Part shown: positions 101 through 60,485 of the stretch, piece by piece
How the letters are laid out: each line of letters opens with the position of its first letter
Position numbering within the stretch: the stretch's first letter is position 1
IMG/VR virus record: IMGVR_UViG_3300036770_001978
Span: 3,753 to 67,752 of that record
Length of the DNA: 64,000 nt
Source of the DNA: a virus
Reading direction: 5' to 3' (one strand)
Program-made: the position numbers and the translations under genes
The notes under the pieces: model-generated
Seen by the model: only the letters and a program-made list of their open reading frames with translations
Database searches by the model: none
Told to the model about the DNA's origin: nothing

Positions 101-1213
101 ATGGCTACGGCAACGAAGGAACGTCGCAAGACTGGTGGCATCACATTGAGCGCCGCCGAGCTGAAGAGTGCTCTCGCCGCTGTCAGCCCGGCTGTGCCAA
201 CAAGGGCACCAAAGCCGGTGCTGACGAACGTGCGTCTGGGTGACGGGCTCGTCACCGGCACTGATCTCGAGGTGCGGATCGACGCCGCCATCGACTACCA
301 TGGCGATGCCATGCTGCTGCCGCACGGGCGGCTCATGGCGATCCTGAACGCCGCCGGTGGCGAGGAGGTGACCCTGGAGCCGAAGGGCACGTCGTGCGTC
401 GTGCGGTGCGGACACGGAACGTGGACGCTGCCCGTCGAGGACGCGGCCGAGTACCCGATCTGGGAGCCGAAGGACGCGAAGCCCGTGACGCGGCTCCCGG
501 CTGACCAGTTCGCTCGGGCGGTGCGTGGCGTGGTGTTCGCCGCCGACCAAGAGTCGAGCCGCTACGCCCTCGGGGCGGTGCTCGTGGACGTGAAGGACGG
601 CGTGGTCAACTTCGTGGCCACCGACGGCCGCCGGCTGTGCTCGTCGGAGATGGAGCACGACCTGGCCGTCGATGACACAACCACACTGGTGCCGAGCCGC
701 GTGATGCAGATCCTGGCCCGCGTCGCGGTGGCGGCCGGCGAGGACTCGGTGCAGCTAGAGGCCACGGCGAACGAGCTGCTGGCCACCATCGGCGGCACGA
801 CCGTCACGGCCCGGCTGACTGAGGGCCGCTTCCCCAGGTGGCGTGACGTGATCCCGGCAGACGGTGGCGAGCCGACCACGGTGCTGGCCACGGAACTGTT
901 GTCGGCGACCAGGGCGGCAGCCATCGTGACGAGCGAGCAGTCGAAGGGCGTGCAGTACACCTTCACGGCTGAAGGCATCCACCTGCACGGGCAGTCTGCC
1001 GAGTCCGGCGAGTCGAGCGTGACGTGCGAGATCGTGGAGGCCGGCAAGGCGTGCACGGTGAAGCTCGATCCGGTGTTCGTCCGCAAGTGGCTCTCGGGCC
1101 TGCCGGCTGACGGCGAGCCAACGGTCAGCGTCCAGGCCACGGACGCTCAGTCGGCCGTCGTGCTTCGCACGGACACGTTCACCGGCGTCATCATGCCCCT
1201 GGCCACGGAGTGA
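101..1213 (+). CDS. dnaN: DNA polymerase III beta sliding clamp
   Basis: 370 aa from the ATG after an AAGGA RBS. Clamp motifs KPVLTNV, GTDLE, SRYALGAV, VATDGRRL, EGRFPRWRDVIP and C-terminal VIMPL. Confidence 0.9.
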   Translation: MATATKERRKTGGITLSAAELKSALAAVSPAVPTRAPKPVLTNVRLGDGLVTGTDLEVRIDAAIDYHGDAMLLPHGRLMAILNAAGGEEVTLEPKGTSCVVRCGHGTWTLPVEDAAEYPIWEPKDAKPVTRLPADQFARAVRGVVFAADQESSRYALGAVLVDVKDGVVNFVATDGRRLCSSEMEHDLAVDDTTTLVPSRVMQILARVAVAAGEDSVQLEATANELLATIGGTTVTARLTEGRFPRWRDVIPADGGEPTTVLATELLSATRAAAIVTSEQSKGVQYTFTAEGIHLHGQSAESGESSVTCEIVEAGKACTVKLDPVFVRKWLSGLPADGEPTVSVQATDAQSAVVLRTDTFTGVIMPLATE

Positions 1214-1536
1214 GCGTAATGCGTCAAAACGTTGACGTTGCCAGTCTGTTCAGGCTCTGGAACGACGAGAGCATGACACGGGCTGAAATCGCACGAGAGC
1301 TCGGCGTGACGGCTGGTCAGCTGACAAGGTTGGCCAGCCGTCACGGGCTCGGCGTTCGAGGACGCAAGCACCGGGCGTTTTCAATGACTGACCCGTCGCC
1401 AGACGAGATCGAGCGGCTGAAGGCCGTGCTGAAGGAACGGCACATCCAGGAGCGGATACGTGAGGACGTGACGAACACGAACAGCAAGGTGAGCAAGTGG
1501 CGGAACGGCATCTGCAGCCCGAGAGGTGTGGCGTGA
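1210..1536 (+). CDS. HTH DNA-binding protein (GcrA-like N-terminus)
   Basis: LW..MTRAEIARELGVT..QL helix-turn-helix. GTGA overlaps on both sides. Confidence 0.6.
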   Translation: MSVMRQNVDVASLFRLWNDESMTRAEIARELGVTAGQLTRLASRHGLGVRGRKHRAFSMTDPSPDEIERLKAVLKERHIQERIREDVTNTNSKVSKWRNGICSPRGVA

Positions 1537-2312
1537 CAGACCGCGACCACTTCGCCGCTGCGGCCCTGACGGGGCTGTTGTCCGACAAGGCCAATCAGTA
1601 TCCCACTGCATTGCAGTGGGAGCAACTGCTGAAGCACGCCTACCGCTGTGCCGACGCCATGCTCCGCGCGCGGGAGCGAACCGATCATGACGCCGCGCCG
1701 GCGGCGACAGCCCCGACAGACGCCAGCCCTCTCCGCTCGGCGCAGAGCGTGACGGCTGGTATGGGCACCGGCAATCAGACTGCTCCACCATGCGTGGAGG
1801 CAGATGGCCTCTCGTCTGCGATAGCGCAGCCACCGGCCTCCAGCGATGGAAGCGGCGAGGGGCGGCCCCTAGACGACACGCGGCCCGACACAAAGGGAGA
1901 AGCGACGGGTGGGCGGGGGCGCAATACAAGTGTTACCAACGGAGACACATCAGCAAAGCCTGTTGCCGAATCTCAAGATCAGCGACAGGAGCCGGTGGCG
2001 TGGGCCGTGTTCTGCGGCGACTCTCGCTTCTGCTATGACCACTACGACGACGAGTGCGAGGCGCAGGCCATCGCGGATATGCTGGCGGGCGATGATCGCG
2101 GCGACGGTTTGTGGCATATCGTCCCGCTCTACCGCGAGCCGCAGACCTGCCCCTACGTCGTTGGCCGCACCACGCTGCACTGTTCGCTGACGCCGCTCAC
2201 GCTCACCGACGCGGAGCGGGAGGCGATCAGGTTCGCCGCCGTGTTCTACTCGCAGGGAGGGCGAGCGGCTGACGCCGCCACGCTCCGCAACCTACTGGAG
2301 AGGACAAAATGA
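1533..2312 (+). CDS. Mosaic hypothetical protein (TDRDHFAAAAL / LTDAEREAI family), copy 1
   Basis: GTG start overlaps the upstream TGA. Blockwise near-identity to 63025-63981. Confidence 0.7.
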   Translation: MTDRDHFAAAALTGLLSDKANQYPTALQWEQLLKHAYRCADAMLRARERTDHDAAPAATAPTDASPLRSAQSVTAGMGTGNQTAPPCVEADGLSSAIAQPPASSDGSGEGRPLDDTRPDTKGEATGGRGRNTSVTNGDTSAKPVAESQDQRQEPVAWAVFCGDSRFCYDHYDDECEAQAIADMLAGDDRGDGLWHIVPLYREPQTCPYVVGRTTLHCSLTPLTLTDAEREAIRFAAVFYSQGGRAADAATLRNLLERTK

Positions 2313-2587
2313 CCAGCGTCTGGCTCGTCACGAACGGCGGCAGCGGGGAGGATGGCGACGAATGGCTGCTGGACTCCATCTACGCAACGAAGGAAGGCGC
2401 AAAGGCTGGGCGCACCAAGTGGTTCAATGTGGTCGAGGAGTCTGTGCTGCGTGGCAGCATCCTCACCGACGAGGAGCGAGAGGCGATTGAGAGGGCCATC
2501 GGGCGAGAGTTGGACGCCGAGTGGTATGGCGGGCCTGAACCAGACAGGGTGGTGGCGCTTCGCGGGCTACTTGAACGGCTAGGCTGA
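2309..2587 (+). CDS. Hypothetical protein with LTDEEREAI..LLERLG C-terminal module
   Basis: ATGA coupling, GGAG RBS. Stop codon lies in the outer box of attC-like site 1. Confidence 0.75.
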   Translation: MTSVWLVTNGGSGEDGDEWLLDSIYATKEGAKAGRTKWFNVVEESVLRGSILTDEEREAIERAIGRELDAEWYGGPEPDRVVALRGLLERLG

Positions 2588-2672
2588 GAACGCCAGCGAT
2601 CTGCGGCCCGCGACCGCTGACTTACCATACCGGCAGGCGGCATCGCGGGTCCGCTGCATCGCGTGGTTCCAA
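2585..2672 (-). repeat. attC-like recombination site 1
   Basis: GAAC-GCCA-GCGAT-CTGCGG-CCCGCGA...TCGCGGG-T-CCGCTG-C-ATCGC-GTG-GTTC. Imperfect hairpin with AAC/GTT ends and two bulged bases. Confidence 0.75.
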
Positions 2673-2690
2673 AAAGCAAAGGAGACAGAC

Positions 2691-2939
2691 ATGAGTGATT
2701 TGATACCGCCGATGATGCCTGACGATCTGGACGCACTCATTCAGGCGATGGAGCGGGTGCAGCAACTAGAGGCAGAGGTGGCAAAGTTGCGACTTACCGA
2801 CGAGGAGCGGGATGCGGTGATAGCGGCGCGAAAGCACCTCTTGTGGCTCGCGCCGCCAGACTCCAATGCGCAGGACACCGTTGATGCTCTTGGTTCGCTG
2901 CTGGAGCGCTTGGCTCTCAACGTAAAGGAGTTGACATGA
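2691..2939 (+). CDS. Hypothetical protein with LTDEERDAV module
   Basis: AAGGAG RBS. Shares the C-terminal module with its neighbours. Confidence 0.7.
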   Translation: MSDLIPPMMPDDLDALIQAMERVQQLEAEVAKLRLTDEERDAVIAARKHLLWLAPPDSNAQDTVDALGSLLERLALNVKELT

Positions 2940-3229
2940 CGCCGTTTGGATTTGTCCTGTCGGTTGCCGCGCTAGTGGTGGGACTGCTGCTTGGATACTT
3001 CGCATCTTGGGCGACACCAAAGCCTGCGCCAGATGACTACGCCGACTGCCTGATTCACCCCGAGACAACGCCGCAGGTCAAGTGGGTGAAAATGACTCGG
3101 CCGACCAGGGACGCGATCATCGACATCTACGCGGCCAACATGGACGAGTGCAAGAAGTTCATGGAGGCGAACGACCGCGTTACGACTGGCGAGGCGGCGA
3201 TACTGTGGCTGATGGAAAAGGCGAAATGA
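2936..3229 (+). CDS. Hypothetical membrane-anchored protein
   Basis: AAGGAG RBS, ATGA coupling, N-terminal hydrophobic helix. Confidence 0.7.
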   Translation: MTPFGFVLSVAALVVGLLLGYFASWATPKPAPDDYADCLIHPETTPQVKWVKMTRPTRDAIIDIYAANMDECKKFMEANDRVTTGEAAILWLMEKAK

Positions 3230-3483
3230 TTCACAACACATGCCCATGCTGCGAAGTGTCACGCCCGCCGCACCGCGATGACTGCACGTTTGCGGTCGAT
3301 TGCCCGGAGGCGTGCGCGGACTTTGACTACGTTGCTAACCTGCGGCTCACCGACGAGGAGCGGCACGCCATCGCGGTCGTCCGCAACTGCGCCATGACGC
3401 GAGCCGAGCGGTTTCTAACGCAGAGCGATGCGGAGAGGGAGGCGACACTGGTGCTGTGGAGATTGCGGGAACGGCTAGGCTGA
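3226..3483 (+). CDS. Small Cys/His-containing protein with LTDEERHAI module
   Basis: ATGA coupling. CPCC..H..C motif. Ends RERLG inside attC-like site 2. Confidence 0.65.
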   Translation: MIHNTCPCCEVSRPPHRDDCTFAVDCPEACADFDYVANLRLTDEERHAIAVVRNCAMTRAERFLTQSDAEREATLVLWRLRERLG

Positions 3484-3569
3484 GAACGCCAGCGATCAGC
3501 GGCATCGAACACAGGAGCAACCATGGGAGACGAGGTAGATGAGATGTCCGCTGCATCGCGTGGTTCTGT
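3481..3569 (-). repeat. attC-like recombination site 2 (loop holds the RBS and ATG of the next gene)
   Basis: GAAC-GCCA-GCGAT-CAGCGG-CATC...GATG-T-CCGCTG-C-ATCGC-GTG-GTTCTGT. Confidence 0.8.
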
Positions 3570-4002
3570 GATCGCACCCCGCGACATCCTTGACGAAGCC
3601 CGAGACTTCCTGAAGCCGCACGGGTCGGCAGACGAGGTTGCCCGCTACCCGGTCGCTTCCCTTGTGCTGCGGCTGGCGGATGAGTTGCGTCAGACGCGAG
3701 CCGCGTTCGGCGATCTGGACGAGCAGGAAAAACTGATCGCGCAACTGGAATCACAACTGGATGGCTGCTGCAAGAAACTGTGGGTGGAGTGGGTGCCGGT
3801 TGCCGAGCAACTGCCGACACGCGATCAGGTTGTTCTCGTCGCGTGGGAAGGTTGGGAGTTGGTGACGTTGGGGCACTTCATCGACGGCGATTGGTTCGAC
3901 CCGGTGGTAGCCATTTCCGAGTACGGGCCGCCGACGCACTGGATGCCGCTGCCGATTGGGCCGCGACCGCCAGTTCCGGCCCCGCCGAGCGACAGTAAGT
4001 AG
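3523..4002 (+). CDS. DUF551-like (Eaa/Ead-type) phage protein
   Basis: WVPVAEQLP...VLVAW...PTHWMPLP motif. Confidence 0.75.
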   Translation: MGDEVDEMSAASRGSVIAPRDILDEARDFLKPHGSADEVARYPVASLVLRLADELRQTRAAFGDLDEQEKLIAQLESQLDGCCKKLWVEWVPVAEQLPTRDQVVLVAWEGWELVTLGHFIDGDWFDPVVAISEYGPPTHWMPLPIGPRPPVPAPPSDSK

Positions 4003-4004
4003 CC

Positions 4005-4094
4005 ACAGAACGACAAGGATAAGGAGCATCGCATGACTGACGAAACAACACCACAGGACGGCAAGGCGATGTCTCCTGCATCCGCTGGTTCGCT
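4005..4094 (-). repeat. attC-like recombination site 3
   Basis: ACAGAAC-GACAA-GGAT-AAGGAG-CATCGC...GCGATG-T-CTCCTG-C-ATCC-GCTG-GTTCGCT. Same bulges as sites 1 and 2, with compensatory stem changes. Confidence 0.75.
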
Positions 4095-4335
4095 GTTCCT
4101 GATTACAGTGCCACTTGGAGACGGACTGGTTGGTATCAAGTGCATTGAGGACGAGGACAAAACGCCCGGCATCCTGATGCGAGCGCTGACCAAGCCATGC
4201 GACATCGGGGCCATGTCGCCAAAAGGCAACAGCGAGAACTTTGGCGTTTTCGTCCGATGCCCGAAACTGGAGTCGGCTCAAGTGCTGCTCAAGGCGGTGC
4301 AAGAACTGTGCGACACACTGAAGGCGAAAGAGTAA
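4033..4335 (+). CDS. Hypothetical cassette protein starting inside attC-like site 3
   Basis: AAGGAG RBS at 4021-4026. Stop codon abuts site 4. Confidence 0.7.
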   Translation: MTDETTPQDGKAMSPASAGSLFLITVPLGDGLVGIKCIEDEDKTPGILMRALTKPCDIGAMSPKGNSENFGVFVRCPKLESAQVLLKAVQELCDTLKAKE

Positions 4336-4376
4336 GCGAACGCCAGCGATCAGCGGCCCGTCCGCTGCATCGCGTG
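4335..4376 (-). repeat. Truncated attC-like site 4
   Basis: AGCGAAC-GCCAGCGATCAGCGG-CCCGT-CCGCTGCATCGCGTG. Loop collapsed and right-hand GTT lost. Confidence 0.65.
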
Positions 4377-4499
4377 ACTGCACACAAACTGTCGAAAAGT
4401 GACACAAACCACCCACCCAGACGTTCGCCCCTGGTTCCATGAGGACGCGGAGCCCGGCCCGTACACCGAAGACCCGGAGGACGGTTACCCGTACGACGA

Positions 4500-4739
4500 A
4501 TGAGCGGCTGCATGATTGAGCGAGGGAGCGCTGGGGTGCCGTGCGTTGGAGGGCCGCTGGACGGAGCGCTCCGGCCTTTCTCGTCGCATGACAGGCTGTG
4601 CGTCTCCATGATCGGCCCGCTTGGCGTTCGGCACCAGTGGTACGAACTGAGGACATGGCGGAAGAAGTCTGGCGAGTACAAGGACAGGTGGGTGTATCTG
4701 GGCTGGGGCGGCACGCACGGCCCGAAGGGGGAACCATGA
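4500..4739 (+). CDS. Hypothetical protein
   Basis: CVGGPLDG motif common in small phage proteins. ATGA coupling to the next gene. Confidence 0.55.
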   Translation: MSGCMIERGSAGVPCVGGPLDGALRPFSSHDRLCVSMIGPLGVRHQWYELRTWRKKSGEYKDRWVYLGWGGTHGPKGEP

Positions 4740-4879
4740 GCGGATGGCTGATAGCCCTGACTGGCTTGATCTACGCCTACGTCTCCGCCGAGCAGTTCTG
4801 GCGTGGCAATCCCGGCATGGGGGTCGCCTACTTGGGGTACGCATTCTCCAATGTGGGCCTGTACCTGCTGGCGAAGTAG
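4736..4879 (+). CDS. Small two-TM membrane protein (47 aa)
   Basis: MSGWLIALTGLIYAYVSAEQFWRGNPGMGVAYLGYAFSNVGLYLLAK. Confidence 0.65.
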   Translation: MSGWLIALTGLIYAYVSAEQFWRGNPGMGVAYLGYAFSNVGLYLLAK

Positions 4880-4880
4880 A

Positions 4881-4893
4881 CGGCCATAAATCC
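4881..4893 (+). promoter_or_regulatory. Candidate late promoter motif (CGGMCATAAATCC)
   Basis: Near-copies at 23942, 44344 and 47146, each upstream of a virion or late gene block. Confidence 0.45.
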
Positions 4894-4907
4894 CGTGAGG
4901 GATTTCT

Positions 4908-6749
4908 ATGGCAACACCCGCTGCGCTCGCTGCCGCCCGTCTGGGGCGGGCCTCTAAGGTCGCGGAGTTGGCAAGCGAGGCGAGGGCGTTCACGCCTGCC
5001 GGGTATCTTCCTGCGCCACCAGTGCCGCGATTTATTTCCAGGGCAGAGGAGGCTGCTGCAAGACTTCCGGCCTCCATCAAGGCAGAGTCCGTGCGAAATG
5101 CGCTCATCAAGGGAGGGGCAAAGCCTGCCGAACTTGACTACGCGGGCCTCGACGGGTTCGTTGCTGACCGCGCCGGGACGAAGGTGTCAGCCGCCGATGT
5201 CCTGTCGCACTTGCGCAGCGAGGGTCCGCTGGAAAGGATTGTGCGAGTCGATCAGCGACGGGGAACAAAAGCGGAGATCGCCGCGCGGAAAATGTCGGGG
5301 GAACCTCCTGAGACATCTTCGATGCGAGAGCCGTTCAACGAGCAGCAGGCATATCCTCGCACGATGTATCACAAACACACAGAGCAGGGGGTCGGCGGCG
5401 ATTATTCCGGATACCGCGAGGTGCTGTTTGGCGACAACCGCAATGACGCCGGTCGTCCCGGAAGAGTGCTGGACGGGCTTGTTGTTCCACACAGGATGAT
5501 GCGTGCTGGCCCAATAGACGCTCACAACTCCACGTACTGGATGCGGTATCACAGCAACCCAGACGCTATTGCAGTCCAAAACGTACAGAGCGATGCCGGT
5601 CAGAATTGGTCGCGCCGCGAAGCCGACCTTCGTCGTGTCGCAAAAAGGCTGGGCGTTCAGCCATATAGCGACGAAATGCCTGCGGCCATAGAGGCGGAGG
5701 CACGGCGACTTTTGTCCGACCTCGCTCGCGCACCAGACGACGAGTACGACGCGCTGTACGACCAGTTGGAAGAAACCCAGATGGCGCAACAGCATCTCAG
5801 CAGGCTGGAGGCAGGAGACAGAGCGCAGGGAGACAAGGTTCGCCGTCTGCAAGAAGATTGGCACCGCGTTTATCTCGACAACGAGTCCATGCGCTGGGCA
5901 GGTCTGGCGGACATGCGCGACAGCGCGGCAGAAGAGGCCGCAGGCGAGGCGCACGACGCAGCGGCCCGAATCGCGGCGTTGTCAGGCAATGTTCACGCGC
6001 CAGAAAGCCCGCTGGTGCAAGAGGATCGCTGGAAGGATTTTCTGGCTCGGCAGATCGTCCTACAAGCGGCCGCAGAAGGGAAGCCAATCACACTGCCGAC
6101 TGGGGCTAACGCCAATCTTGTTGAGGGAATGCCCATTCAAGCGGCGACCGTGTTCTACGAAAAAGACTTCCCTAGCCGCATCGAGAAAGTCCTCAAGGAG
6201 TTTGACCCACAAGGTGGTGGGGCGTCGTCGCGGTATGTCGGCCAAGCCGGAGACATGCGACTTTATGGACCCGCGCCGCGAGACGGAGGCTCCGCGAGCG
6301 AGGCAAGCGCGCTGAACGTTCCGGCTCTTGGCAGCGTGGCGCGGGTTGTGCCGTACACGAACGAATTGGACGGGCTCGTGAGGCAGATTGTGGCTGACGC
6401 TGGGCCAGACGACGCAAGGCTTCTCTCGCTTGTCCGATTTGAGGGCAAGTCAGGAGACGGCAGGCGGCTCGCGATTGACAAGATGCTGGACACGTTATCC
6501 CGCAGCCCTGAGATTGTGGCCCCAGACCAGCAGCCGCACATTTCGCGGCTGTATGGAGTGCTTGAGCGAGCGCGATCGCATCCTGTGCCCGTAGTGGGAG
6601 GAGAGCGTCCGGGAACCCACATCACCATGACACCAGTGGCGCGCCGAAACATCCTGGAGCGCGGAATGCCAATCATGTCGGTGATCCCTGCGGCAGCAAT
6701 CGGCGCATCGCAGGGCGGCGTCCTCGACGGCTTGAAGGAGACACGGTGA
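4908..6749 (+). CDS. Large polyvalent-protein-like / internal virion-like protein
   Basis: 613 aa. YREVL, NVQSD, W....R..L.AAAEG, FYEKD.P and ITMTP...GMP pattern recalled from phage polyvalent and ejected proteins. Confidence 0.55.
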   Translation: MATPAALAAARLGRASKVAELASEARAFTPAGYLPAPPVPRFISRAEEAAARLPASIKAESVRNALIKGGAKPAELDYAGLDGFVADRAGTKVSAADVLSHLRSEGPLERIVRVDQRRGTKAEIAARKMSGEPPETSSMREPFNEQQAYPRTMYHKHTEQGVGGDYSGYREVLFGDNRNDAGRPGRVLDGLVVPHRMMRAGPIDAHNSTYWMRYHSNPDAIAVQNVQSDAGQNWSRREADLRRVAKRLGVQPYSDEMPAAIEAEARRLLSDLARAPDDEYDALYDQLEETQMAQQHLSRLEAGDRAQGDKVRRLQEDWHRVYLDNESMRWAGLADMRDSAAEEAAGEAHDAAARIAALSGNVHAPESPLVQEDRWKDFLARQIVLQAAAEGKPITLPTGANANLVEGMPIQAATVFYEKDFPSRIEKVLKEFDPQGGGASSRYVGQAGDMRLYGPAPRDGGSASEASALNVPALGSVARVVPYTNELDGLVRQIVADAGPDDARLLSLVRFEGKSGDGRRLAIDKMLDTLSRSPEIVAPDQQPHISRLYGVLERARSHPVPVVGGERPGTHITMTPVARRNILERGMPIMSVIPAAAIGASQGGVLDGLKETR

Positions 6750-6750
6750 T

Positions 6751-8220
6751 ATGGCTGGACTGAACGAGGCGGGCATCGACGAGATCTTCGCCTCACGCCC
6801 CAAGCCCAACCCTGCCGCCCAGCCGGGTGCGTTGGGAATGGAGCGAGCCGATGCCATTCGCGGGGAGATTTACCGGCGGCACCGCATCGCCCCCGACACG
6901 CCGCTTGCGGACGCGATGAAGCAGATCGAGCAACGGTCGCAGATGCGGTCGGCTCTCGGCGTGGACGGCGGACAGCCATCGGCATGGGCGAACCCGGAGG
7001 AGCGGGCGAGGGCCAGGGAGGAGTACGCCCGGCAGGGCAGGACTCCGGCGGAGGTGAACAAGCGGTGGGAGGAGTCCACGCACCTGCTCGACCCCCGCAC
7101 CTACCAGTACATGCAGAACTTCGGCCGCGACCTGGACTTCTTGCAGGCTGAATCGCTCAAGAACGAGAGGGCGGCTCGCCTCCAGGATGCGCAAATCCCG
7201 GAGGCTGACCCGACTGGCATGGACATCTGGTCGGCAGCACGCGGAGTGCAGGCTGGAATGCTGGACGAAGGTGCAAAGCGAGCGATTCAGTATTACGACC
7301 AGGGCGGCGGACAGCGTTTGTCTGGTGCTGGTGGAGCAAACCCAGTGCGTGCGCCAAACGGCTACGCACGGTTTGACACTACGCCCAACGCGATCATGGA
7401 CAACATGACCAATCCGGACGTGCCGCTTGGGAACTACCTGACATTCTCGGAGACGGCACCCAACTTTCTTCGCCTGCAAGGAAGCGGGGAGACGGGAACG
7501 GCTGGCGAGTCGTGGGATAGGGCCAACGCCCAGCGACTTGCGGAGAATCGGTATCGCTTGTCCTCGCCGCACGCGATTCTCGACCTCCCATTTGGATCCA
7601 CCAACCAAGAAATCTCCCAGCGGATTGCTGCCTTGCAGAACGAAGTCAGGGCGTCAAGCATCCCGATGGCGGACGAGCGGTGGCAGAGGACGTTGGGCTG
7701 GACTCCTCCAGGCGTTCTTAGTGATGCAGGCGACTTTGCCATCAGCATGGTCGATCCGACTGTCGTAATGCCTGCGGCCAGGGGCGCTGGTGCGCTCACG
7801 AACGCCGCGCGGGCGGCGATGAAGGGCGCCAGAATTGCTGGATCGGGGTGGATCGCACCTGCCGTCCGCTCTGCGGCCGGGTCAGCAGCCAAAGATTTTG
7901 CCGTTGATATGGGCGTCGAGCAGGGCGTTGGGGCTGGTGTGCAAACCTCTATGGGCGGCGTGTTTGGCAGGTCGGACGGCCAGTATTGGCGTGGCGGCGG
8001 GAAGCCGGGCGTGGACTTTGACTACAAGACCGACGAGCAGGTGGCGGAGGCTCGCCGTGCGGGCGACCAACTCCATGCCCGACTGAAGGACGACGACGGA
8101 GTATCGAGAGCGGACAGCGAGGCATACAACCGGCTTGTCGCTACGGGCCTCCTCCCACAGCCCGGCAGTGACCTCCACCCGCGTCCGCAGTGGAGGATGA
8201 ACTCGTCCAACAAGCAGTAG
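6751..8220 (+). CDS. Hypothetical Ala/Gly-rich protein, possibly virion-internal
   Basis: 489 aa ORF with AAGGAG RBS, co-oriented with the head genes. Confidence 0.65.
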   Translation: MAGLNEAGIDEIFASRPKPNPAAQPGALGMERADAIRGEIYRRHRIAPDTPLADAMKQIEQRSQMRSALGVDGGQPSAWANPEERARAREEYARQGRTPAEVNKRWEESTHLLDPRTYQYMQNFGRDLDFLQAESLKNERAARLQDAQIPEADPTGMDIWSAARGVQAGMLDEGAKRAIQYYDQGGGQRLSGAGGANPVRAPNGYARFDTTPNAIMDNMTNPDVPLGNYLTFSETAPNFLRLQGSGETGTAGESWDRANAQRLAENRYRLSSPHAILDLPFGSTNQEISQRIAALQNEVRASSIPMADERWQRTLGWTPPGVLSDAGDFAISMVDPTVVMPAARGAGALTNAARAAMKGARIAGSGWIAPAVRSAAGSAAKDFAVDMGVEQGVGAGVQTSMGGVFGRSDGQYWRGGGKPGVDFDYKTDEQVAEARRAGDQLHARLKDDDGVSRADSEAYNRLVATGLLPQPGSDLHPRPQWRMNSSNKQ

Positions 8221-45333: not shown

Positions 45334-46275
45334 ATGACGGAGTTCTTCGCCTCACCAGAGGACATCGTTCGGGCGTACAACGACGGGCTCATGGGCTCGT
45401 ACTGCGACCCCGATGCCACCGCCCGCCTGCTGCGGTCGCTGCCCATGCCGTTGTTCGGAGGCACGCTGGCGGGTAGCGGTGCGGGCAAACTGTCCCTCGC
45501 CTTCAAGGCAGTCGTCCACTGGGAGACAACGACCGGCCGCAAGCCCTACGACGAGACGCAAACGACGGGCGATTGTGTCAGCCATGCCGTGCGGGGCGGG
45601 TCTGATGTGGCTCGGGCCAACGACCCTGACCTGCACTCGACGGAGGACTGGGTAGACCGCACGGCGACGGAGCCGCTGTACGGCGCTCGGGGTCATGGCG
45701 GTCAGGGGGCGACCTGCTCCCGCATCGTGGAGTGGGCGCACAAGACCGGCGGGCTGATGCTCCGCAAGAAGTACGACTCGCTCGGGATTGACCTCACGGA
45801 ATACAACGCATCGGTGGGCATGCGGTGGGGCTCGCGTGGTGTGCCGTCTGAGGTGACCAGCGAAGCGAAGAAGCACCACATCGGGACGATCAGTCTGGTG
45901 ACGACGTGGCAGCAGGCACGGGACGCCATCGCCAATGGGTACGGGCTGGTGTGCTGCTCGGACGTTGGGTTCGCCGGGATGAAGCGGAACTCGGAGGGCA
46001 TGATCCGCCCGTCCGGGACATGGCACCACGCGATGCAGTGGCACGCGGCCGACGCCACCCGCCCCAATGACTGCCGCTTCTGCGTGCAGAACTCGTGGGG
46101 CTGGAACGCTCACACCGGCCCGAAGGTGCATGACCAGCCGGAAGGGTCGTTCTGGATCGACCAGCAGACGGCCCAGCGGATGATCGCACAAGGGGGAACG
46201 TATGCAGTATCGAACGTGGTGGGCTTTCCTAAGCGGACGCTCAAAGACTGGGGCGCACGGGAGATTCTCGGATGA
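45334..46275 (+). CDS. Papain-family (C1-like) cysteine peptidase
   Basis: QTTGDCVSHA (Gln/Cys), HAM (His), VQNSWG (Asn), GSFWI. Confidence 0.85.
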   Translation: MTEFFASPEDIVRAYNDGLMGSYCDPDATARLLRSLPMPLFGGTLAGSGAGKLSLAFKAVVHWETTTGRKPYDETQTTGDCVSHAVRGGSDVARANDPDLHSTEDWVDRTATEPLYGARGHGGQGATCSRIVEWAHKTGGLMLRKKYDSLGIDLTEYNASVGMRWGSRGVPSEVTSEAKKHHIGTISLVTTWQQARDAIANGYGLVCCSDVGFAGMKRNSEGMIRPSGTWHHAMQWHAADATRPNDCRFCVQNSWGWNAHTGPKVHDQPEGSFWIDQQTAQRMIAQGGTYAVSNVVGFPKRTLKDWGAREILG

Positions 46276-50343: not shown

Positions 50344-51234
50344 TCAGAATGAGTCGGGTCCGGGAATGTAGAGGTCACCGAGAATCCACTCCGTGATGCC
50401 AGCGATGGCGTCCTTGCTGCACTTCCACCGCATGCCGCCGTCTCGCCAGGACTTCCCTTCCGGGACGGCAAAGAACTGGCTGTGCTTGCGGGCGTAGTCA
50501 CCGTCAACGTGGTGATGCGTCCGTCCTGTGTCGTCGTACGGGCCGACCTTGATGAGCAGCCGCTTGCCGTCCTGCCCCGCTGTGGGTGCGGTGCAGACGT
50601 GCAGGGTGGCACCCACGAAGGGGATGTGGGCACGGTATCCAGGCAGTTCGTCAAAGACCTGCACCACGCAGGGCGGGCCATCGGCCAGTGCCCGCTTCAG
50701 ACGGGTGGCAAACAGCCTGCACCTGCGGGCCAGCGTCTTGTACTTGCGGTGTTCAAACGGCTTGGCCCAGTTCTTCGGCGCTGGCAGCAGCCCGCGTGGG
50801 ACGTGCTGCCACACTCCAGGCAGTCGGGGGACAAGCGTGGCAACGCCGTCGCGAACGATGTAGTGCATGCGGATGTCGTCCGCGAACACCCGCCGCTCGT
50901 CGTACGGGGTGAACGCCCGCACGTAGCGTTTCCATGTCTCCCGAATCTTCTCGTGCCGCTGGCGGTTCTGCCTGCGGTAGTACGTGTCGGGGCTGACGAC
51001 GGAGTATGCCGTGTCGCCATTCGCCGCACGGTAGACGTACGCCAGCGGCACGACGAGACGGTCTGTCTCGTACGCAATCGCAATGGCGCACGGCGGACGC
51101 TGGCTTTGGGCCGCAACAACGCTGCCGTACAGGGACGTTGACCGTCTGGCTCCCGTCTTGTGCTCACGCAGGATCACCTCCAACTGTTCGTAGGTGTAGA
51201 CCTTCTTCCTGAGTTTCTTCTGTGTCATGCTCAT
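50344..51234 (-). CDS. Hypothetical basic protein
   Basis: 296 aa, ATGA-coupled to the VWA gene. Confidence 0.65.
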   Translation of the reverse strand: MSMTQKKLRKKVYTYEQLEVILREHKTGARRSTSLYGSVVAAQSQRPPCAIAIAYETDRLVVPLAYVYRAANGDTAYSVVSPDTYYRRQNRQRHEKIRETWKRYVRAFTPYDERRVFADDIRMHYIVRDGVATLVPRLPGVWQHVPRGLLPAPKNWAKPFEHRKYKTLARRCRLFATRLKRALADGPPCVVQVFDELPGYRAHIPFVGATLHVCTAPTAGQDGKRLLIKVGPYDDTGRTHHHVDGDYARKHSQFFAVPEGKSWRDGGMRWKCSKDAIAGITEWILGDLYIPGPDSF

Positions 51235-52733
51235 GCCTCTTGTTTGAGTGGCACAACGCGAGCCCACTTGGGGATGGAGTTGTGCCAGTGCGAGTCCTTG
51301 TGACCCGTGTACGCCACAACGATGCGGGCACGTGGCTTCTTGCCATGCCAGTCCGTCGCGGCGTCCGTGATGAGAACGATGGAGTCAGGCTTGTCGGCCT
51401 GCTCAACCTGCTCGATGGCGGTGGACATGTCCGTGCCGCCGCCCCCGTGCCACTCAAACAACTTGGTCGTGGCGACCATCTTGTGCGACTGCACTTGCGT
51501 ATCGGCACAGTAGACTTTGACCCGCCCCAGTTTCCGCAGCCCTTGAGCGATGACGGACAGGGCTTTGGCCTGCACCTCCGTCATCATCATGGAGGCAGAC
51601 GTGTCCACGATCACGACGGCATGCGGCTGCACGGTGATGCGGCCGTGCAGGAGTGGGGCATCGTCGCCCGGCGGCTGCTTGCGTGACCGGCGGCGGTGAG
51701 AGTAGTCCCGTCCGCCAACCGGAGATGCCACGCTGGTGCAGACCGCCGACCGCAACTGATCGAACGGGTTGGGCGTGGGACGCAACTTCTGCTTGAGTGC
51801 CTGCTTGATGGAGCCGGGCACCTTGCCGGGATTGCTGGACTCGTACTGGGCTATGGCTTCTTCCGCTTGGGCTGCTGCCATGTCCTCGCCGTACGCTTCC
51901 CACGAGCCGTCACTTTCGATCTCGTAGGGGCGAGGGCACCCGTCCGCACACGAGCCGCCGGTGCCCGGCGAACCGGGCGGGGGCGGTGCCGAGCCCTGCC
52001 CAGACGGAGGCGATCCCGCTCCGCTGCCAGACGGACTCTTGCTGCCATCCGCGTCAGCACCGTCTTCGCCGGCGTCTCCCCCAGCACCCGGACTGCCAGC
52101 GCCACCGTCGCTGCCCTCGCCGCCCATGTCGTCGTCGCCTTGCCCGTCTCCATCGGGATCATCGCCGCCGGATGTGGACGAATCCCCCTTCTCGCCACCA
52201 CTTCCGGAAGACCCATCGGAATCAGACTCCCCATCGCTGCCTCCTTGCTGTTGGTTGTTGTCGCCGCTCCGCTTCAACTTCTCCATGATGAGGCGGTAAT
52301 ACTCCTGCATCGACTTGTTCTCTGGGAAGTCGAGCGTGATGCCCCATGCCGGGACTTCCACTCCCAGATGCACGGCACCCTCCGGTCGCAGGTGCCGCAT
52401 CATGTCGAGCGTCTGCTCGATGACCAGATCACCGGCCACGTTGCAGACGAACCGCTCCAACTCACTCGGGTTCTTGCCAAGTATCTCCTGCGACCGGGAG
52501 TGGTGGTCGAAGATCAGATGCAACACCTCGTGGGCCACGAGGTAGGCGGTCTGATCCCGGCCGATCTTGGATACGAACTCGGCATCCCAGTACAGGTTGC
52601 CAGCCGCGTCCACTGCTGCCGTGCCGATGCCCGGCGTCTCCTGCTCACGCAGGGAGTAGATGTACGAGGCGAGGTACGGGACATACTCAAAGGTATGCAC
52701 CCGTGCCTGCCCCAGTAGTTGTCGTGGGGTCAT
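51231..52733 (-). CDS. Metallopeptidase-VWA protein (DUF2201-like)
   Basis: TAAVD, HEVLH, N.A.DL.I, Gly/Asp-rich linker, MIDAS DTSAS, GGGGTD, LITD. Confidence 0.88.
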   Translation of the reverse strand: MTPRQLLGQARVHTFEYVPYLASYIYSLREQETPGIGTAAVDAAGNLYWDAEFVSKIGRDQTAYLVAHEVLHLIFDHHSRSQEILGKNPSELERFVCNVAGDLVIEQTLDMMRHLRPEGAVHLGVEVPAWGITLDFPENKSMQEYYRLIMEKLKRSGDNNQQQGGSDGESDSDGSSGSGGEKGDSSTSGGDDPDGDGQGDDDMGGEGSDGGAGSPGAGGDAGEDGADADGSKSPSGSGAGSPPSGQGSAPPPPGSPGTGGSCADGCPRPYEIESDGSWEAYGEDMAAAQAEEAIAQYESSNPGKVPGSIKQALKQKLRPTPNPFDQLRSAVCTSVASPVGGRDYSHRRRSRKQPPGDDAPLLHGRITVQPHAVVIVDTSASMMMTEVQAKALSVIAQGLRKLGRVKVYCADTQVQSHKMVATTKLFEWHGGGGTDMSTAIEQVEQADKPDSIVLITDAATDWHGKKPRARIVVAYTGHKDSHWHNSIPKWARVVPLKQEA

Positions 52734-52984
52734 GGGAGGTTCTCCGTAGGGGTTTCCGGGAGGTCGCACCAGTACCGCACTCGCGGCACCATTCTGGGCG
52801 GCAGCGTGCCGGGCTTGGCCGACCCGTACACGACTGACGGCCAGTCGAAGTCAAAGACCGTGCCGTCCCAGTACGCCATCTCGATGTAGCCATCGTCCTG
52901 TGCGACAAGCACACGACGCTGGCTGTCGGGCAGGCACTTCCGTTCGCCCTGCTCGACTTCATGCCACACAATTCCGATGCACAT
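52730..52984 (-). CDS. DUF551-like small protein
   Basis: WH....LP...RVLV...V.YW..LP. Confidence 0.55.
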   Translation of the reverse strand: MCIGIVWHEVEQGERKCLPDSQRRVLVAQDDGYIEMAYWDGTVFDFDWPSVVYGSAKPGTLPPRMVPRVRYWCDLPETPTENLP

Positions 52985-54719: not shown

Positions 54720-54796
54720 GACAGGAATGCTCCTGAGTAGGGGACCAATGGGACGGGGGACGGGGCGGCACGATGCTACCCCGTCCCCCTACAAAC

Positions 54797-54833
54797 CAGA
54801 CTCCGCAGCGGGAAAACTGCGGGGAAAACGTCA
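54797..54833 (-). repeat. 15-bp motif copy 1, within a 37-bp repeat identical to 56808-56844
   Basis: CAGACTCCGCAGCGGGAAAACTGCGGGGAAAACGTCA on the + strand. Confidence 0.9.
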
Positions 54834-55160
54834 GCCGCCGACGCAGATGACGAACGTCGGGGAGGCGGCTGGTGCGGCAGCGGGTTCGCTGCGGCGAGCG
54901 GTCGGCTGGGCAGAGGTCCGGGTGATCTTGGCCCTCCGCTTGACCTTCCGCTTGGCGGGTACGATCCCGCTTGGCCTGTTCCGCATGCCCTTCAACTTGG
55001 GCAGGACGAGCCCGCGCTGGGCCAGCGTCTTGAGCCGGTCGTTGAGCATGTATGGACTGATGCCAGTGAGTTCCAAGAACTCCTTGAAGTGCAGGTCGCA
55101 GGTCAGGGCGTCCTTGTACTCGCTGATGAACTTGCTGTAGTCGAGGCGAAGCGTACGCAT
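54831..55160 (-). CDS. Hypothetical basic protein, possible HTH
   Basis: AAGGAG RBS. EFLELTGIS...L..R...L..RG..LP.L. Confidence 0.65.
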   Translation of the reverse strand: MRTLRLDYSKFISEYKDALTCDLHFKEFLELTGISPYMLNDRLKTLAQRGLVLPKLKGMRNRPSGIVPAKRKVKRRAKITRTSAQPTARRSEPAAAPAASPTFVICVGG

Positions 55161-55187
55161 AACACTCTCCTTAGTGGATGGGATGGG

Positions 55188-56066
55188 TCAGACAGCCGCA
55201 GCCAGCAGCCGATTGACGGCGACTGCCTGCTTCACTTGGTCGATGGCCGCAGTCAGTTCGGGCAACGGTCGCCCGAGAACCTGCTCGTACAACCGCACCT
55301 TCTCCAGAAACCTGTCGGCCCTGTTGATTCGCACGTTGATGGAGCGGTCGGCCATGCCGCCGGTCGCCTCCATCACGTCGGTCATGATCTCCGCCAGACC
55401 TGCCTGCACTTCCGAGCCGAGCCGGTCGAGGACGTGCATCACCGTGTCGGGATCGGATGCGATCTCGACTTGGTGAACGGTGAATCGCGGGCCGTCTGCG
55501 TGCGGTCCGAGCAGCAGGCTTGCGAACGTGCGGAAGTCCTCAAGCGTCTGGCCCAGCATGAACCACACGCCGCCGTCGTCCTTCAGTGGCGTGGCCTTCC
55601 AGTGGCGGAGCATCTTGACCACCACCTGACCGACCACGCTGGACGGCAGGTAGTCCCGCTGCTGCACGACCGCAGGGTCGAGCGAGGCGAGAACCTGTGA
55701 GCCGCGTGGCCCGGCGGAGTCGTACTCCAGGATGCCCACGCCCCAGTTGGTGTCGATGAGGGCAGAGAACAGGAAGCGGTACTCGTTCTGCGACTGGCCC
55801 GGCACCACACGCACCACCTCAAACGAGGCTGGGTCGTCCAGTTGCCGCACCACGTTGGGTTGCCTGCGGATGCGGCCGTACAGGCTGTCGGCTACGTCCT
55901 TCATGCAGTCCCGCAGCACGGTCGTGCGAGCGGGCTGGGCAGGGACGAACTGCCCGCAGCGTACGGCATCCGCCGCGTAGTAGAGGCGGTCGCGGTTGAC
56001 CGTCTTGGTGTTGAGGATGGCGATGCCGCCGAGCCCCGACCCGATGGTGAGAGTTGTCGGTGTCAT
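55188..56066 (-). CDS. Conserved phage protein (DUF3150/DUF6744-like)
   Basis: 292 aa. PL...GGVWF motif and helical C-terminus. Typical MoxR-VWA neighbour. Confidence 0.6.
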   Translation of the reverse strand: MTPTTLTIGSGLGGIAILNTKTVNRDRLYYAADAVRCGQFVPAQPARTTVLRDCMKDVADSLYGRIRRQPNVVRQLDDPASFEVVRVVPGQSQNEYRFLFSALIDTNWGVGILEYDSAGPRGSQVLASLDPAVVQQRDYLPSSVVGQVVVKMLRHWKATPLKDDGGVWFMLGQTLEDFRTFASLLLGPHADGPRFTVHQVEIASDPDTVMHVLDRLGSEVQAGLAEIMTDVMEATGGMADRSINVRINRADRFLEKVRLYEQVLGRPLPELTAAIDQVKQAVAVNRLLAAAV

Positions 56067-56077
56067 GGTGGATCCTT

Positions 56078-56254
56078 TCAGTGGGTGATGACTTGGTGCT
56101 GTGCCTTGACGAACCGTCGTTGCAGGACAGCGAACGCCGCTGCCTGCTCGGGTTCATCGAACTGCTCGCGGTCCTCCGCGCTCTCGTGCAGGGCCGTGAT
56201 GATGAGGTCGATCTCGCTGGGCGTGAGGGTCACGGTAGTAGTCGGGTATGGCAT
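56078..56254 (-). CDS. Small hypothetical protein (58 aa, not in ORF track)
   Basis: AGGAGG RBS. MPYPTTTVTLTPSEIDLIITALHESAED... Confidence 0.6.
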   Translation of the reverse strand: MPYPTTTVTLTPSEIDLIITALHESAEDREQFDEPEQAAAFAVLQRRFVKAQHQVITH

Positions 56255-56284
56255 ACCCCGCCTCCTGTGTGAGTGTACATCTAT

Positions 56285-56449
56285 TCAGTTCTCCGTCAAC
56301 GGTTCGACGGGCCGGGAGCCGGTGTTCCAGTTGTCATCCGGATGCCTGAGCATCCCGGTGTAGATGACGACCTCACGCTCGTCGCTCTCGTCGAACATGG
56401 CGTCGGGGAACACGGCGAGTACGCGATCCATCAGTTCTTGCAGCGTCAT
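56285..56449 (-). CDS. Small hypothetical protein (54 aa)
   Basis: AAGGAG RBS. MTLQELMDRVLAVFPDA... Confidence 0.55.
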   Translation of the reverse strand: MTLQELMDRVLAVFPDAMFDESDEREVVIYTGMLRHPDDNWNTGSRPVEPLTEN

Positions 56450-56678
56450 GCTTCTGCTCCTTGAGGTAAGACTTCCAGTCGAACGACCACGCACGGGCAC
56501 CGATCACTTGGGCGTGGCCCTTACGTGCGATGCGGCGGGCGAGGTACTGCAACCAGCCGAGCCCGGTCCACCCGAAGTGGGCGGCGATCTCCCGGTACGA
56601 CGGCTGGTATCCATTGGCGTCAATCGAGCGGGCGATGAGGGTGAGAATCTCTCGCTCGCGTTGGGTCAGGTCAGTCAT
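56373..56678 (-). CDS. LexA N-terminal-like winged-HTH protein
   Basis: LT.RE.EIL..I...I..NGY.PS.REIA.HFG...YL.R..RKG. No peptidase domain. Confidence 0.8.
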   Translation of the reverse strand: MTDLTQREREILTLIARSIDANGYQPSYREIAAHFGWTGLGWLQYLARRIARKGHAQVIGARAWSFDWKSYLKEQKHDAARTDGSRTRRVPRRHVRRERRA

Positions 56679-56687
56679 TGCTTCCTT

Positions 56688-56780
56688 TCAGTCGAGTTCC
56701 GCCCACCGTGCCAGTGCCTTCATGGCGACGTAGCACATGGCGAGGAAGATTTCGATCTCCGCATGGGTCCAGTGGTGCAT
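56688..56780 (-). CDS. Very small ORF (30 aa)
   Basis: AAGGAGG RBS directly after the 15-bp motif. Confidence 0.45.
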   Translation of the reverse strand: MHHWTHAEIEIFLAMCYVAMKALARWAELD

Positions 56781-56807
56781 GGCTTGCCTCCTTGCTTGCC
56801 GTATAGA

Positions 56808-56844
56808 CAGACTCCGCAGCGGGAAAACTGCGGGGAAAACGTCA
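56808..56844 (-). repeat. 15-bp motif copy 2 (37-bp repeat)
   Basis: Identical to 54797-54833. Confidence 0.9.
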
Positions 56845-57579: not shown

Positions 57580-57640
57580 GGGAACCTCGTGTGGAAAGAA
57601 AGCGGGGCCAGTGACCCAGTGCCACCGGCCCCGCAGAAAC

Positions 57641-57655
57641 CAGACTCCGCAGCGG
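57641..57655 (-). repeat. 15-bp motif copy 3, followed by a terminator-like hairpin (57593-57634)
   Basis: CAGACTCCGCAGCGG. GCGGGGCC/GGCCCCGC stem plus TTTCTTT on the - strand. Confidence 0.9.
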
Positions 57656-57660
57656 CGAAA

Positions 57661-58509: not shown

Positions 58510-58546
58510 GCAGGAATCTCCTTGTGAGTGTGAGTGAAACTAGGAA

Positions 58547-59791: not shown

Positions 59792-59858
59792 GTCTCGCTC
59801 CTCAGCGAAGGTGAAAAAGAAAGGGCCGCCCCACGACGGGACGGCCCATGCCGAAAAC

Positions 59859-59873
59859 CAGACTCCGCAGCGG
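59859..59873 (-). repeat. 15-bp motif copy 4, followed by a terminator-like hairpin (59813-59847)
   Basis: CAGACTCCGCAGCGG. GGGCCG/CGGCCC stem plus TTTCTTTTT on the - strand. Confidence 0.9.
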
Positions 59874-59877
59874 CGGA

Positions 59878-60006
59878 TCACCGCTGCTTTTGCTTGCGGC
59901 GAGTGGCTCGCTTGGCGTGCTTGCGTGCCACTCGCAGTCGCTCCTCCTCCTTGACGCGTTCAGCCTTGACCAGTGACCACCACTGGTCGTTCCACTTGTT
60001 GCCCAT
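59878..60006 (-). CDS. Small basic protein (42 aa, not in ORF track)
   Basis: AGGAGG RBS, TGATG coupling. MGNKWNDQWWSLVKAERVKEEERLR... Confidence 0.55.
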   Translation of the reverse strand: MGNKWNDQWWSLVKAERVKEEERLRVARKHAKRATRRKQKQR

Positions 60007-60221: not shown

Positions 60222-60223
60222 GT

Positions 60224-60481: not shown

Positions 60482-60485
60482 CGAT

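Follow-up and report, generated by a model that had tools for sequence, protein, structure and literature searches.

Inverted integron attC sites of the Planctomycetota type in phage genomes, many with a Shine-Dalgarno sequence and an in-frame ATG inside the site

Four copies of an imperfect hairpin in the genome of a tailed phage are genuine integron attC sites, of the type found in Planctomycetota, and they belong to a family that is present in more than 100 viral contigs. The phage cassettes are inverted, i.e. they read attC, gene and stop and end in ...GAA, and thereby form the mirror image of the cassettes found in bacterial arrays. In 88 of the 222 unique phage copies, moreover, a Shine-Dalgarno sequence (SD) and an ATG are located inside the attC site. 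The explanation that we favor, with a probability of about 0.7, is that of an integron attC cluster (CALIN) residing in a phage in inverted orientation, in which many of the sites have absorbed the start of the gene and in which the cassettes are moved by an integrase of the host. Within this explanation, the sequences show which family the sites belong to, that bacterial copies are linked to integrases, where the cassettes begin and end, that the phage cassettes are inverted, and that SD, ATG and frame are conserved; an integron integrase of the host would then still be moving the phage cassettes.

Four attC sites clustered in a tailed-phage genome

The window, i.e. the whole stretch of 64,000 bases that was analyzed, comprises bases 3753-67752 of a virus record of 67,752 bases that is 100% complete according to CheckV. 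It has a G+C content of 63% and derives from a tailed phage, whose genes include those of a portal, a major head protein and a sliding clamp as well as that of an ordinary phage integrase. A blastn search with window positions 2300-4500 against the phage records of GenBank yielded no match. The hairpin occurs four times on the plus strand, between positions 2588 and 4380, in an early or accessory region of the phage. Its general layout is GAAC, a 4-nt spacer, GCGAT-CAGCGG, a loop, CCGCTG-c-ATCGC (with the bulged base in lower case), a 3-nt spacer and GTTC. The repeat is not a product of chance: the left arm is found three times in the window at up to 3 mismatches, versus 0.15 expected from shuffles, and the right arm four times, versus 0.06 expected. 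Among the latter four, the match on the minus strand at 46023-46041 lacks a partner arm. A scan of the window for the structure only recovered sites 1 to 3, together with two matches at the noise level of the shuffles. The R-box triplets AAC and GTT are both present in sites 1 to 3.

Site 1 (2588-2669; class B, the classes being defined below) has a 44-nt loop with an inner hairpin of its own and no SD, and the gene that follows it begins downstream, at 2691, with its own AAGGAG. Site 2 (3484-3566, class C) has the R box GAAC/GTTC, spacers of 4 and 3 nt and a 45-nt loop; its GAAC is located at 3484-3487 and its stem GCGATCAGCGG (3492-3502) pairs with CCGCTG-c-ATCGC (3548-3559), leaving a bulged C at 3554. 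The loop contains a translation initiation region (3512-3525, plus strand) that consists of CAGGAG (3512-3517), a 5-nt spacer and the ATG at 3523. Every coordinate given in the initial annotation of this DNA, which had been made from the sequence alone, was confirmed. Site 3 (4008-4091, class D) runs from GAAC (4008-4011) to GTT (4088-4090), and the stem of its L box, AGGAT-AAGGAG (4016-4026), pairs with CTCCTG-c-ATCCG (4073-4084) around a bulged C at 4079. In this site the SD is part of the stem, i.e. AAGGAG (4021-4026) pairs with 4073-4078 and is followed, after a 6-nt spacer, by the ATG at 4033 (whole region 4021-4035, plus strand). Relative to CAGCGG/CCGCTG a C-G pair has become G-C and a G-C pair has become A-T on both sides, which are the two compensatory pairs that had been described before, and to these a C-to-A mismatch has to be added. 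The layout from AAC to GTT is alike in sites 3 and 2 (82 nt versus 81 nt). Site 4 (4338-4380, class A) has a loop of 5 nt and an intact left R box; its right R box has decayed (GTGACTG where GTGGTTC is expected) and the GTT is missing. Sites 1 and 4 are two further copies, located beyond the range that had been annotated initially.

The gene directly upstream of site 1 (2309-2587, plus strand) ends in LLERLG, and its TGA stop abuts the GAAC of the site. The C-terminal module of this gene recurs in the ORFs 1497-2312, 2691-2939 and 3229-3483.

With four sites within 1.8 kb and no integron integrase close by, the cluster is of the CALIN type. A search of the complete 67.7-kb record with TIGR02249, at E-values of up to 10, gave no integron integrase match, and the sole tyrosine recombinase of the record is the ordinary phage integrase (35555-36463, minus strand). 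The same search target was sought in five other viral records with multiple copies of the hairpin, three of which are at least 97% complete, and none was found (0/6 including the record of the window). Any recombination in these phages would therefore depend on an enzyme of the host.

A family of hairpins with covarying stems

The collection of viral contigs was scanned for 16 bases of the right arm, which yielded at least 119 viral stretches. In 135 of the 154 right-arm matches listed, rows that include the window's own loci, the left arm is located at a distance of at most 120 nt. Using a copy finder that demands AAC, GTT and at least 9 of the 11 stem pairs, 258 unique copies were obtained from the collected loci, 222 of them viral and 36 from bacterial loci. 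The DUF551 protein encoded by ORF 3523-4002 was also used as a query for related loci, without a confirmed relative among the viral contigs.

Among 208 unique cores defined by sequence, both AAC and GTT are found at the expected spacing in 168 (AAC in 182, GTT in 185). A single bulged base is present in the 3' arm of all 208, being a C in 203 and a G in 5; it is the one clear extrahelical base, a C and not the usual G, which weighs against the integron explanation, and the 4-nt/3-nt spacers add one unpaired base. These spacers are variable in sequence and nearly constant in length (left 4 nt in 233 of 242 copies, right 3 nt in 240 of 242), and the length of the loop ranges from 5 to 54 nt within the family. 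The stem covaries: 57 unique arm pairs contain 42 double-compensatory cells, distributed over 10 of the 11 stem positions, where shuffles average 7.9 and reach 17 at most. Beside its structure, the sequence of the hairpin is also unusually conserved.

Arrays of the same element beside integron integrase genes

A 20-mer of the element was searched in a collection of species-representative genomes, in which it recovered 24 stretches, 13 of them labelled Planctomycetota and all of them from metagenome bins, so that the arrays described here, as well as the cassettes shared with genome G126 (see below), could include misassembly at repeats. Several of the stretches are arrays with a spacing of 0.4-1.4 kb. 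One layout is that of contig C19 of genome G003 (labelled Planctomycetaceae), where six copies of the family at 680-6094 are directly followed by an integron integrase gene at 6754-7890 (TIGR02249, 454.5 bits versus a cut-off of 265). The bacterial type of the element, that of G003 included, has a loop of 44-46 nt.

In addition, 151 genomes of the order of G003 were sampled using a pattern with loops of 30-60 nt. At least three exact cores were found in four of the 151 genomes, and all four encode an integron integrase that scores over the cut-off, versus 23 of the 151 overall (hypergeometric probability about 4 in 10,000). In genome G138, two sites are located about 2 kb from an integron integrase gene (contig C155). 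Given these arrays next to integron integrase genes of Planctomycetota, the element is an attC site, and the hairpins of the window are genuine attC sites of the Planctomycetota integron type. The qualification 'attC-like' that had been given to them was borne out by the integrase-linked arrays and, as described in the next section, by complementary cassette ends and breakpoints at AAC. The link to an integrase, the cassette boundaries and the inversion of the phage cassettes were absent from the initial annotation. The portal protein of the window phage was compared to the four array-bearing bacterial genomes and no relative was found, so that the link to a host comes from the type of the attC alone.

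Cassette ends and the point of crossover

In an integron, the two R-box halves that flank one cassette derive from one circular molecule. The ends of a cassette should therefore be complementary, and the two sides of one hairpin need not be. Such complementarity, over at least 4 nt beyond AAC/GTT, was found between the ends of 86 of 119 unique viral cassettes. The two sides of a single hairpin showed it in 31 of 218 cases and randomly paired ends in 15.5%. Among cassettes of the bacterial loci the count was 8 of 21, versus 5% of random pairs.

Three cassettes can be delineated in the window, all on the plus strand. Cassette K2 (3487-4010) consists of an attC core and ORF 3523-4002 (159 aa, DUF551 domain), the TAG stop of which (4000-4002) precedes the crossover by 8 nt. 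It is 92% coding, with site 2 contributing 43 of its 83 bases as codons, and its ends are complementary over 8 nt (GTTCTGTG on the right side of site 2, CACAGAAC on the left side of site 3). Cassette K3 (4011-4340) consists of an attC core and ORF 4033-4335 (100 aa, no family match), and its ends are complementary over 7 nt (GTTCGCT on the right of site 3, AGCGAAC on the left of site 4). Cassette K1 (2591-3486) begins at the C of the AAC in site 1, ends with the AA of site 2 and holds an attC core with three small ORFs (2691-2939, 2936-3229 and 3229-3483); its ends match over 1 nt beyond AAC/GTT, i.e. sites 1 and 2 correspond only in GTTC/GAAC. This cassette, with its three genes and barely matching ends, and site 4, with its lost right R box, count against the integron explanation.

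The position of the break follows from contigs that share one neighboring gene. In 27 contig pairs that have the upstream gene alone in common, the four bases before AAC are identical in 24, the spacer directly after AAC is identical in 2 and differs in 25, and the loop is identical in 1. In 42 pairs that have the downstream gene alone in common, the L box is identical in 34 and the right spacer in 36, versus a baseline identity of 36% and 46%, respectively, in unrelated pairs. As the pairs with a common downstream gene keep the core of the site and those with a common upstream gene do not, the core moves with the downstream gene and the break is located at the left AAC. Crossover would thus take place at the left 5'-AA/C of the phage sense strand (between AA and C), in which case the mobile unit would comprise the attC core, the gene and the stop, and end in ...GAA.

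Three small phage-like contigs aside, an initial comparison of bacterial arrays and viral loci gave no common cassettes. Two were found later, at 94% and 98.5% identity, both of them shared by viral locus L034 with one and the same bacterial genome, G126. Homology extends from one AAC to the next AAC in the first of these; in the second it begins at the end of the bacterial contig and stops at the next AAC. One of the two sits in an array among sites of the bacterial type.

A different view would be that the hairpins are conserved linkers and that the phage genes are shuffled by homologous recombination, with no site-specific recombinase in the phage. A precedent would be the PeSLs of T4-type phages, mobile regulatory cassettes that Arbiol (2010, PMC2839356) reportedly described as units of a promoter and a stem-loop and that are thought to move by homologous recombination. 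The absence of an integron integrase from all six viral records examined would suit this view. So would the comparison of locus L004 with L099 and L106, in which the same downstream gene is preceded by different loops, so that exchange must also occur within the site; for homologous recombination this needs exchange within the conserved arms. Furthermore, the metagenome contigs break and rejoin at the sites: DNA sequencing contigs (four sets from one study) end at attC sites, the word depth at these sites is about 8-17 times that of neighboring unique sequence (run X2), and several contig joints begin or finish at sites (e.g. 3565 to 4009 and 4338 to 4733). The sides of these joints are short (24-50 nt) and the community is mixed, and the joints can therefore not be read as excision events. 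Against shuffling by homology stands the sharpness of the break, because a repeat of 40-80 nt should scatter the breakpoints, whereas the spacer adjacent to AAC differs in nearly all pairs with a common upstream gene (25/27). Neither the complementary ends of the cassettes (86/119) nor the AAC-bounded cassettes in common with a bacterial array are predicted by it. Finally, the early promoter that should accompany the stem-loop was not found, as a scan of positions 1200-5200 for promoters of the sigma-70 type gave 0 matches, a weak test given that the consensus may not be the one used by the host. We therefore regard homologous shuffling as unlikely.

Orientation of the phage cassettes

Three lines of evidence bear on the strand of the attC sites. 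According to Nivina 2016, a hairpin geometry of this kind marks the bottom strand of attC, which is the strand that is recombined, and the geometry of the family matches the bottom strand as presented there. In the bacterial arrays, all seven cassette ORFs that are supported by Pfam (DUF6883, DUF2442, DUF2961, ankyrin, GrpB, DinB_2 and DUF1801) are located on the strand opposite to the element. In the phage contigs, the codon-position G+C of the intervals favors the sense strand in 72 of 104 cases and the opposite strand in 32. The coding strand was judged from codon-position G+C and Pfam matches; the length of open frames alone had been tried and could not discriminate in short, G+C-rich cassettes. 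Because the three lines agree, the sense strand of the phage corresponds to the bottom strand of attC, and because the genes of bacterial cassettes are on the opposite strand, the phage attC lies 5' of its gene. The canonical cassette layout, with the ORF on the top strand and attC at its 3' side, is thus found in the bacterial arrays and not in the phage cassettes, and the phage cassettes are inverted.

The sense orientation of the element in phage contigs, 5' of genes, would also suit an RNA element, such as a processing site, a stabilizer, a terminator or a translational operator, the likeness to attC then being restricted to the shape of a hairpin; the pairing of SD and anti-SD in class D indeed resembles a translational operator. 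Such an RNA-only element is very unlikely, as the same sequence is found antisense to cassette ORFs in bacterial arrays beside integron integrases, and as an RNA role leaves unexplained why the ends of cassettes, and not those of hairpins, are complementary and why homology breaks at AAC. In addition, a scan of positions 1200-5200 for intrinsic terminators found none at any of the four elements, nor a T-run, and a search of Rfam with the hairpin gave no family, only three matches at chance level (E of at least 6.8). G-T and A-C mispairs are equally common in the stems (18 versus 16), and there is therefore no sign of folding in the RNA sense only. The hairpin may nevertheless have a role as RNA alongside its role as DNA.

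Putative gene starts inside the attC site

On the basis of loop and inner stem, the 222 viral copies can be divided into class A with a short loop (90 copies), class B with a long loop and no SD (44), class C with SD and ATG in the loop, like site 2 (56), and class D with the inner stem CAGGAG/CTCCTG and an ATG 6 or 9 nt later, like site 3 (32). None of the 36 copies from bacterial loci belongs to class D, and two of them fit the pattern of class C loosely. The initial annotation had described the stem of site 3 as one that had turned into an SD. The rewritten stem is indeed seen, and yet it is no drifted copy: the form with the SD in the stem is a conserved class that is maintained by compensatory pairing, with the 32 unique viral instances of class D as its members.

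The frame in which the ATG opens the right arm is the same in 55 of 56 copies of class C and in 32 of 32 of class D (87/88 in total). This includes the two ORFs of the window (3523-4002 and 4033-4335), for which a common frame across the right arm had been noted before. Complete ORFs of at least 60 aa were found for 49 of 55 (class C) and 30 of 31 (class D) copies, 79 of 86 in total, and the medians of the complete ORFs are 101 aa and 108 aa, respectively. The control for the frame was read from the right arm, an ATG-based control being biased by ATGA, which is an instant stop in the +1 frame. Read in this way, the leader frame is open over at least 60 codons in 49 of 55 copies of class C and in 29 of 31 copies of class D, and the other two frames in 15/56 and 11/56 (C) and in 7/32 and 8/32 (D), and in class A all three frames score low (32/88, 18/89 and 21/89). 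In both classes the columns of SD and ATG are invariant, and the spacer and codons 2-3 are variable. The distance between SD and ATG is 6 or 9 nt in 29 of the 32 copies of class D, and insertions before the ATG are balanced by deletions after it, by which both the frame and the length of the loop are kept. When the leader is removed, the 79 proteins fall into 36 sequence families, the largest of which has 30 members, and three families include both kinds of leader. Some leaders have no second Met, so that the first ATG is the sole candidate for a start there. The proposal that the hairpin is a dual-use element is thereby supported, in view of the number of copies with a conserved SD and ATG, the fixed frame and the diversity of the proteins that carry a leader.

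From these patterns we infer that translation starts at the ATG in the loop. The N-termini MSAASRGS and MSPASAGS, as proposed initially, have to be abandoned, because the Met codons in question, at 3544 and 4069, are internal ones; the starts that are served by an SD give MGDEVDEMSAASRGS... (3523) and MTDETTPQDGKAMSPASAGS... (4033), and the two proteins of the window thus most likely begin with MGDEVDEM... and MTDETTPQ..., respectively. That the SD and ATG of the loop are unused, the real starts being located downstream of the hairpins and the open frame being a by-product of G+C-rich DNA, is highly improbable, for although the DNA is 63% G+C, copies without an SD are also open for at least 60 codons in the same frame (class A 32/88, class B 21/42) and the downstream gene of L004 has its own ATG and is used leaderless in other contigs, such a by-product accounts neither for the fixed frame (87/88) and the excess of open leader frames (78/86 versus about 18-19/88 per other frame), nor for the preferred SD-ATG distance in class D (29/32), the invariance of SD and ATG amid variable neighbors and the offsetting of insertions by deletions.

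About 40% of the phage attC sites would have taken in the translation start of the gene because attC constitutes the 5' leader in the inverted cassette. Two forms are seen: in class C the SD is placed in the variable terminal loop, and in class D the inner L stem reads CAGGAG/CTCCTG in place of CAGCGG/CCGCTG. Either way, the ATG is located in the loop and the right arm would be translated as codons, in one fixed frame.

Hairpin structure and translation

Predicted RNA folds differ between the two sites of the window. With its hairpin intact, site 2 presents an exposed SD (probability of being unpaired 0.89), and this probability drops to 0.35 when the 5' arm is held open. In site 3 the SD is sequestered (0.17), and holding open the whole sequence as far as 12 nt beyond the upstream stop does not release it. 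Being predicted as paired, the SD of site 3 should hinder initiation. The initial annotation had envisaged a gate, in which the hairpin blocks initiation until it is opened by a ribosome that terminates upstream; the folds of sites 2 and 3 lend no support to such a gate, which folding as such cannot exclude. Judged from the folds, the hairpin would tune translation, with the SD exposed in class C and sequestered in class D.

These elements can be combined in a broader scenario, which we put forward tentatively and at somewhat less than even odds, namely that of a lineage of Planctomycetota phages with a mirror-image integron. Such a lineage would maintain an inverted pool of early-gene cassettes in which attC doubles as leader, ribosome-binding site and first 15-20 codons. 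The integrase of the host would shuffle the cassettes between phages and, occasionally, into an array of the host, where they would be antisense and silent. The hairpin would set the level of translation, by displaying the SD on the loop (class C) or by locking it in the stem (class D). Since it is the non-template strand that would recombine, the site could even be extruded by the transcription of the early region.

Implications

By definition, an integron cassette consists of a promoterless gene followed by attC, and its orientation is held to be essential for expression. Contrary to this definition, an entire lineage of phages has its cassettes in the reverse orientation. The arms and loop of the attC site come under joint selection as recombination site, ribosome-binding site and coding sequence, and the family thereby constitutes a natural data set on the extent to which attC can be rewritten while the fold is kept, with the SD/anti-SD stem of class D as a clean case of compensation. 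The two cassettes in common point to a concrete route for the trade of genes between phages and integrons. The cassettes also represent mobile genes that carry their own translation start; according to a review (PMC8876359), about a fifth of the classical cassettes are without one. How one leader came to be joined to 36 protein families bears on the unsolved problem of the origin of cassettes.

Comparison with known systems

The presence of attC clusters in phages, some of which are recombined by IntI1, and the presence of start sites embedded in integron recombination sites are already known. The openly accessible literature gave no report of full-length genes that start within attC, of a lineage with inverted cassettes or of an L stem that pairs SD and anti-SD.

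Phage genomes with attC clusters that lack an integrase, as in the window, were described by Qi et al. 2023 (PMC9892861), whose accessible text lists 17 CALINs among 21 phages with integrons or integron components, from diverse hosts, and recombination with IntI1 for 5 of 6 phage attC sites tested. Unlike the present case, the same text mentions neither gene starts internal to attC nor an inversion across a lineage, and it describes divergent directions of attC within one phage.

Precedents for translation from within a recombination site are ORF-11 in attI1 and the short ORFs in attC (Hanau-Bercot 2002 and Jacquier 2009, reviewed in PMC8876359; see also PMC11511950). They share with the phage sites the presence of SD and ATG in a recombination site and translation across the crossover or stem that aids the adjacent cassette; such ORFs are, however, about 11 aa long, are located on the top strand and serve the next cassette through coupling or re-initiation. 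In the phage attC sites it is the full-length ORF of the cassette itself that starts in the site, on the bottom strand, with the L and R arms as N-terminal codons.

PeSLs resemble the phage sites in that they are structured and conserved repeats between genes, are found next to small early genes of variable content and delimit the units of gene shuffling. Unlike these sites, they are not known to have an integrase-linked counterpart in bacteria or an AAC/GTT core.

Among the closest known systems are the attC sites of sedentary chromosomal integrons of the Planctomycetota type. Integrons in Planctomycetes and inverted integrases are in print (PMC4889954, PMC8352920), as is an attC model specific for Planctomycetes (Ghaly 2021, PMC8352920). 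The hairpin family shares with the chromosomal sites the R boxes AAC/GTT, the unpaired spacers, an L stem with a bulge opposite the AAC arm, a variable terminal structure (5-54 nt), arrays adjacent to intI, complementary cassette ends and the crossover at AA/C. The phage sites differ from the chromosomal ones in that the phage genes are on the bottom strand with attC 5' of the gene, that the loops are often only 5-6 nt long or rewritten with an SD and an ATG, and that the single bulge is a C.

Left edges of the attC sites and a shared C-terminal module

In the R-box extension at the 3' end of a cassette, more than one reading frame meets a stop codon, in the form of TAGGCTGAG, TAGCCACAG or a TAA that is built together with the AAC of the left R box (e.g. 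at window positions 2576-2591, 3472-3487 and 3997-4011). As a consequence, the distance from the end of the upstream ORF to the crossover is always about 10 nt or less. Four adjacent genes (ORFs 1497-2312, 2309-2587, 2691-2939 and 3229-3483) have a C-terminal module in common, which follows the pattern L-T-D-E/A-E-R-x-A-I, about 25 residues, and then L-L-E-R-L/T-G/K directly before the stop. The module is repeated at the DNA level as well (repeat families D4 and D6), and the metagenome word depth peaks over its motif (2126-2246). The same ending is found in many cassettes of other contigs, and its final codons lie partly within the left R-box extension.

The first of these genes (1497-2312, 271 aa) contains three blocks with a second copy, 95-97% identical, where the record ends (1521-2331 versus 63013-64000), at a spacing of 61.5-61.7 kb. 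The copy at 63013-64000 could represent a paralogue, or it could stem from an assembly that passed through a strain variant and so continued past the starting point of a genome that is circular or has terminal redundancy.

A long-loop subtype with an ATG

One long-loop subtype, beginning with CCCGCGACCTATGACCATGAAC, carries an ATG and lacks a Shine-Dalgarno sequence (loci L011, L021, L029, L036, L046, L051, L062, L085, L090 and L109, among others). Here the right arm is read in a different frame, yielding P-L-H-R-V-V, and this frame stays open over 84-199 aa in 10 of the 11 complete cases. The subtype may constitute a third mode of in-site start, or its open frame may be due to chance.

Minus-strand genes

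A second repeat family is present within the region of minus-strand genes (54781-61623). At least seven copies have the core CAGACTCCGCAGCGG in common, with a short stretch complementary to it just behind (repeat families D5, D7 and D10). These repeats may act as hairpins that regulate the leftward genes. A 512-aa protein encoded on the minus strand at 51231-52769 has a match (E = 3.9e-41) to a PHROG family with the annotation HNH endonuclease.

A phage-type cassette at the end of a bacterial contig

The last 330 bases of contig C6 (233.8 kb) of the bacterial metagenome bin G126 form a phage-type cassette (locus L158, 7433-7762). The sequence past its terminal AAC is not attC, and the cassette may have inserted there at a secondary site or one resembling attI. 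Compared with the viral locus L034, this terminal cassette is 98.5% identical.
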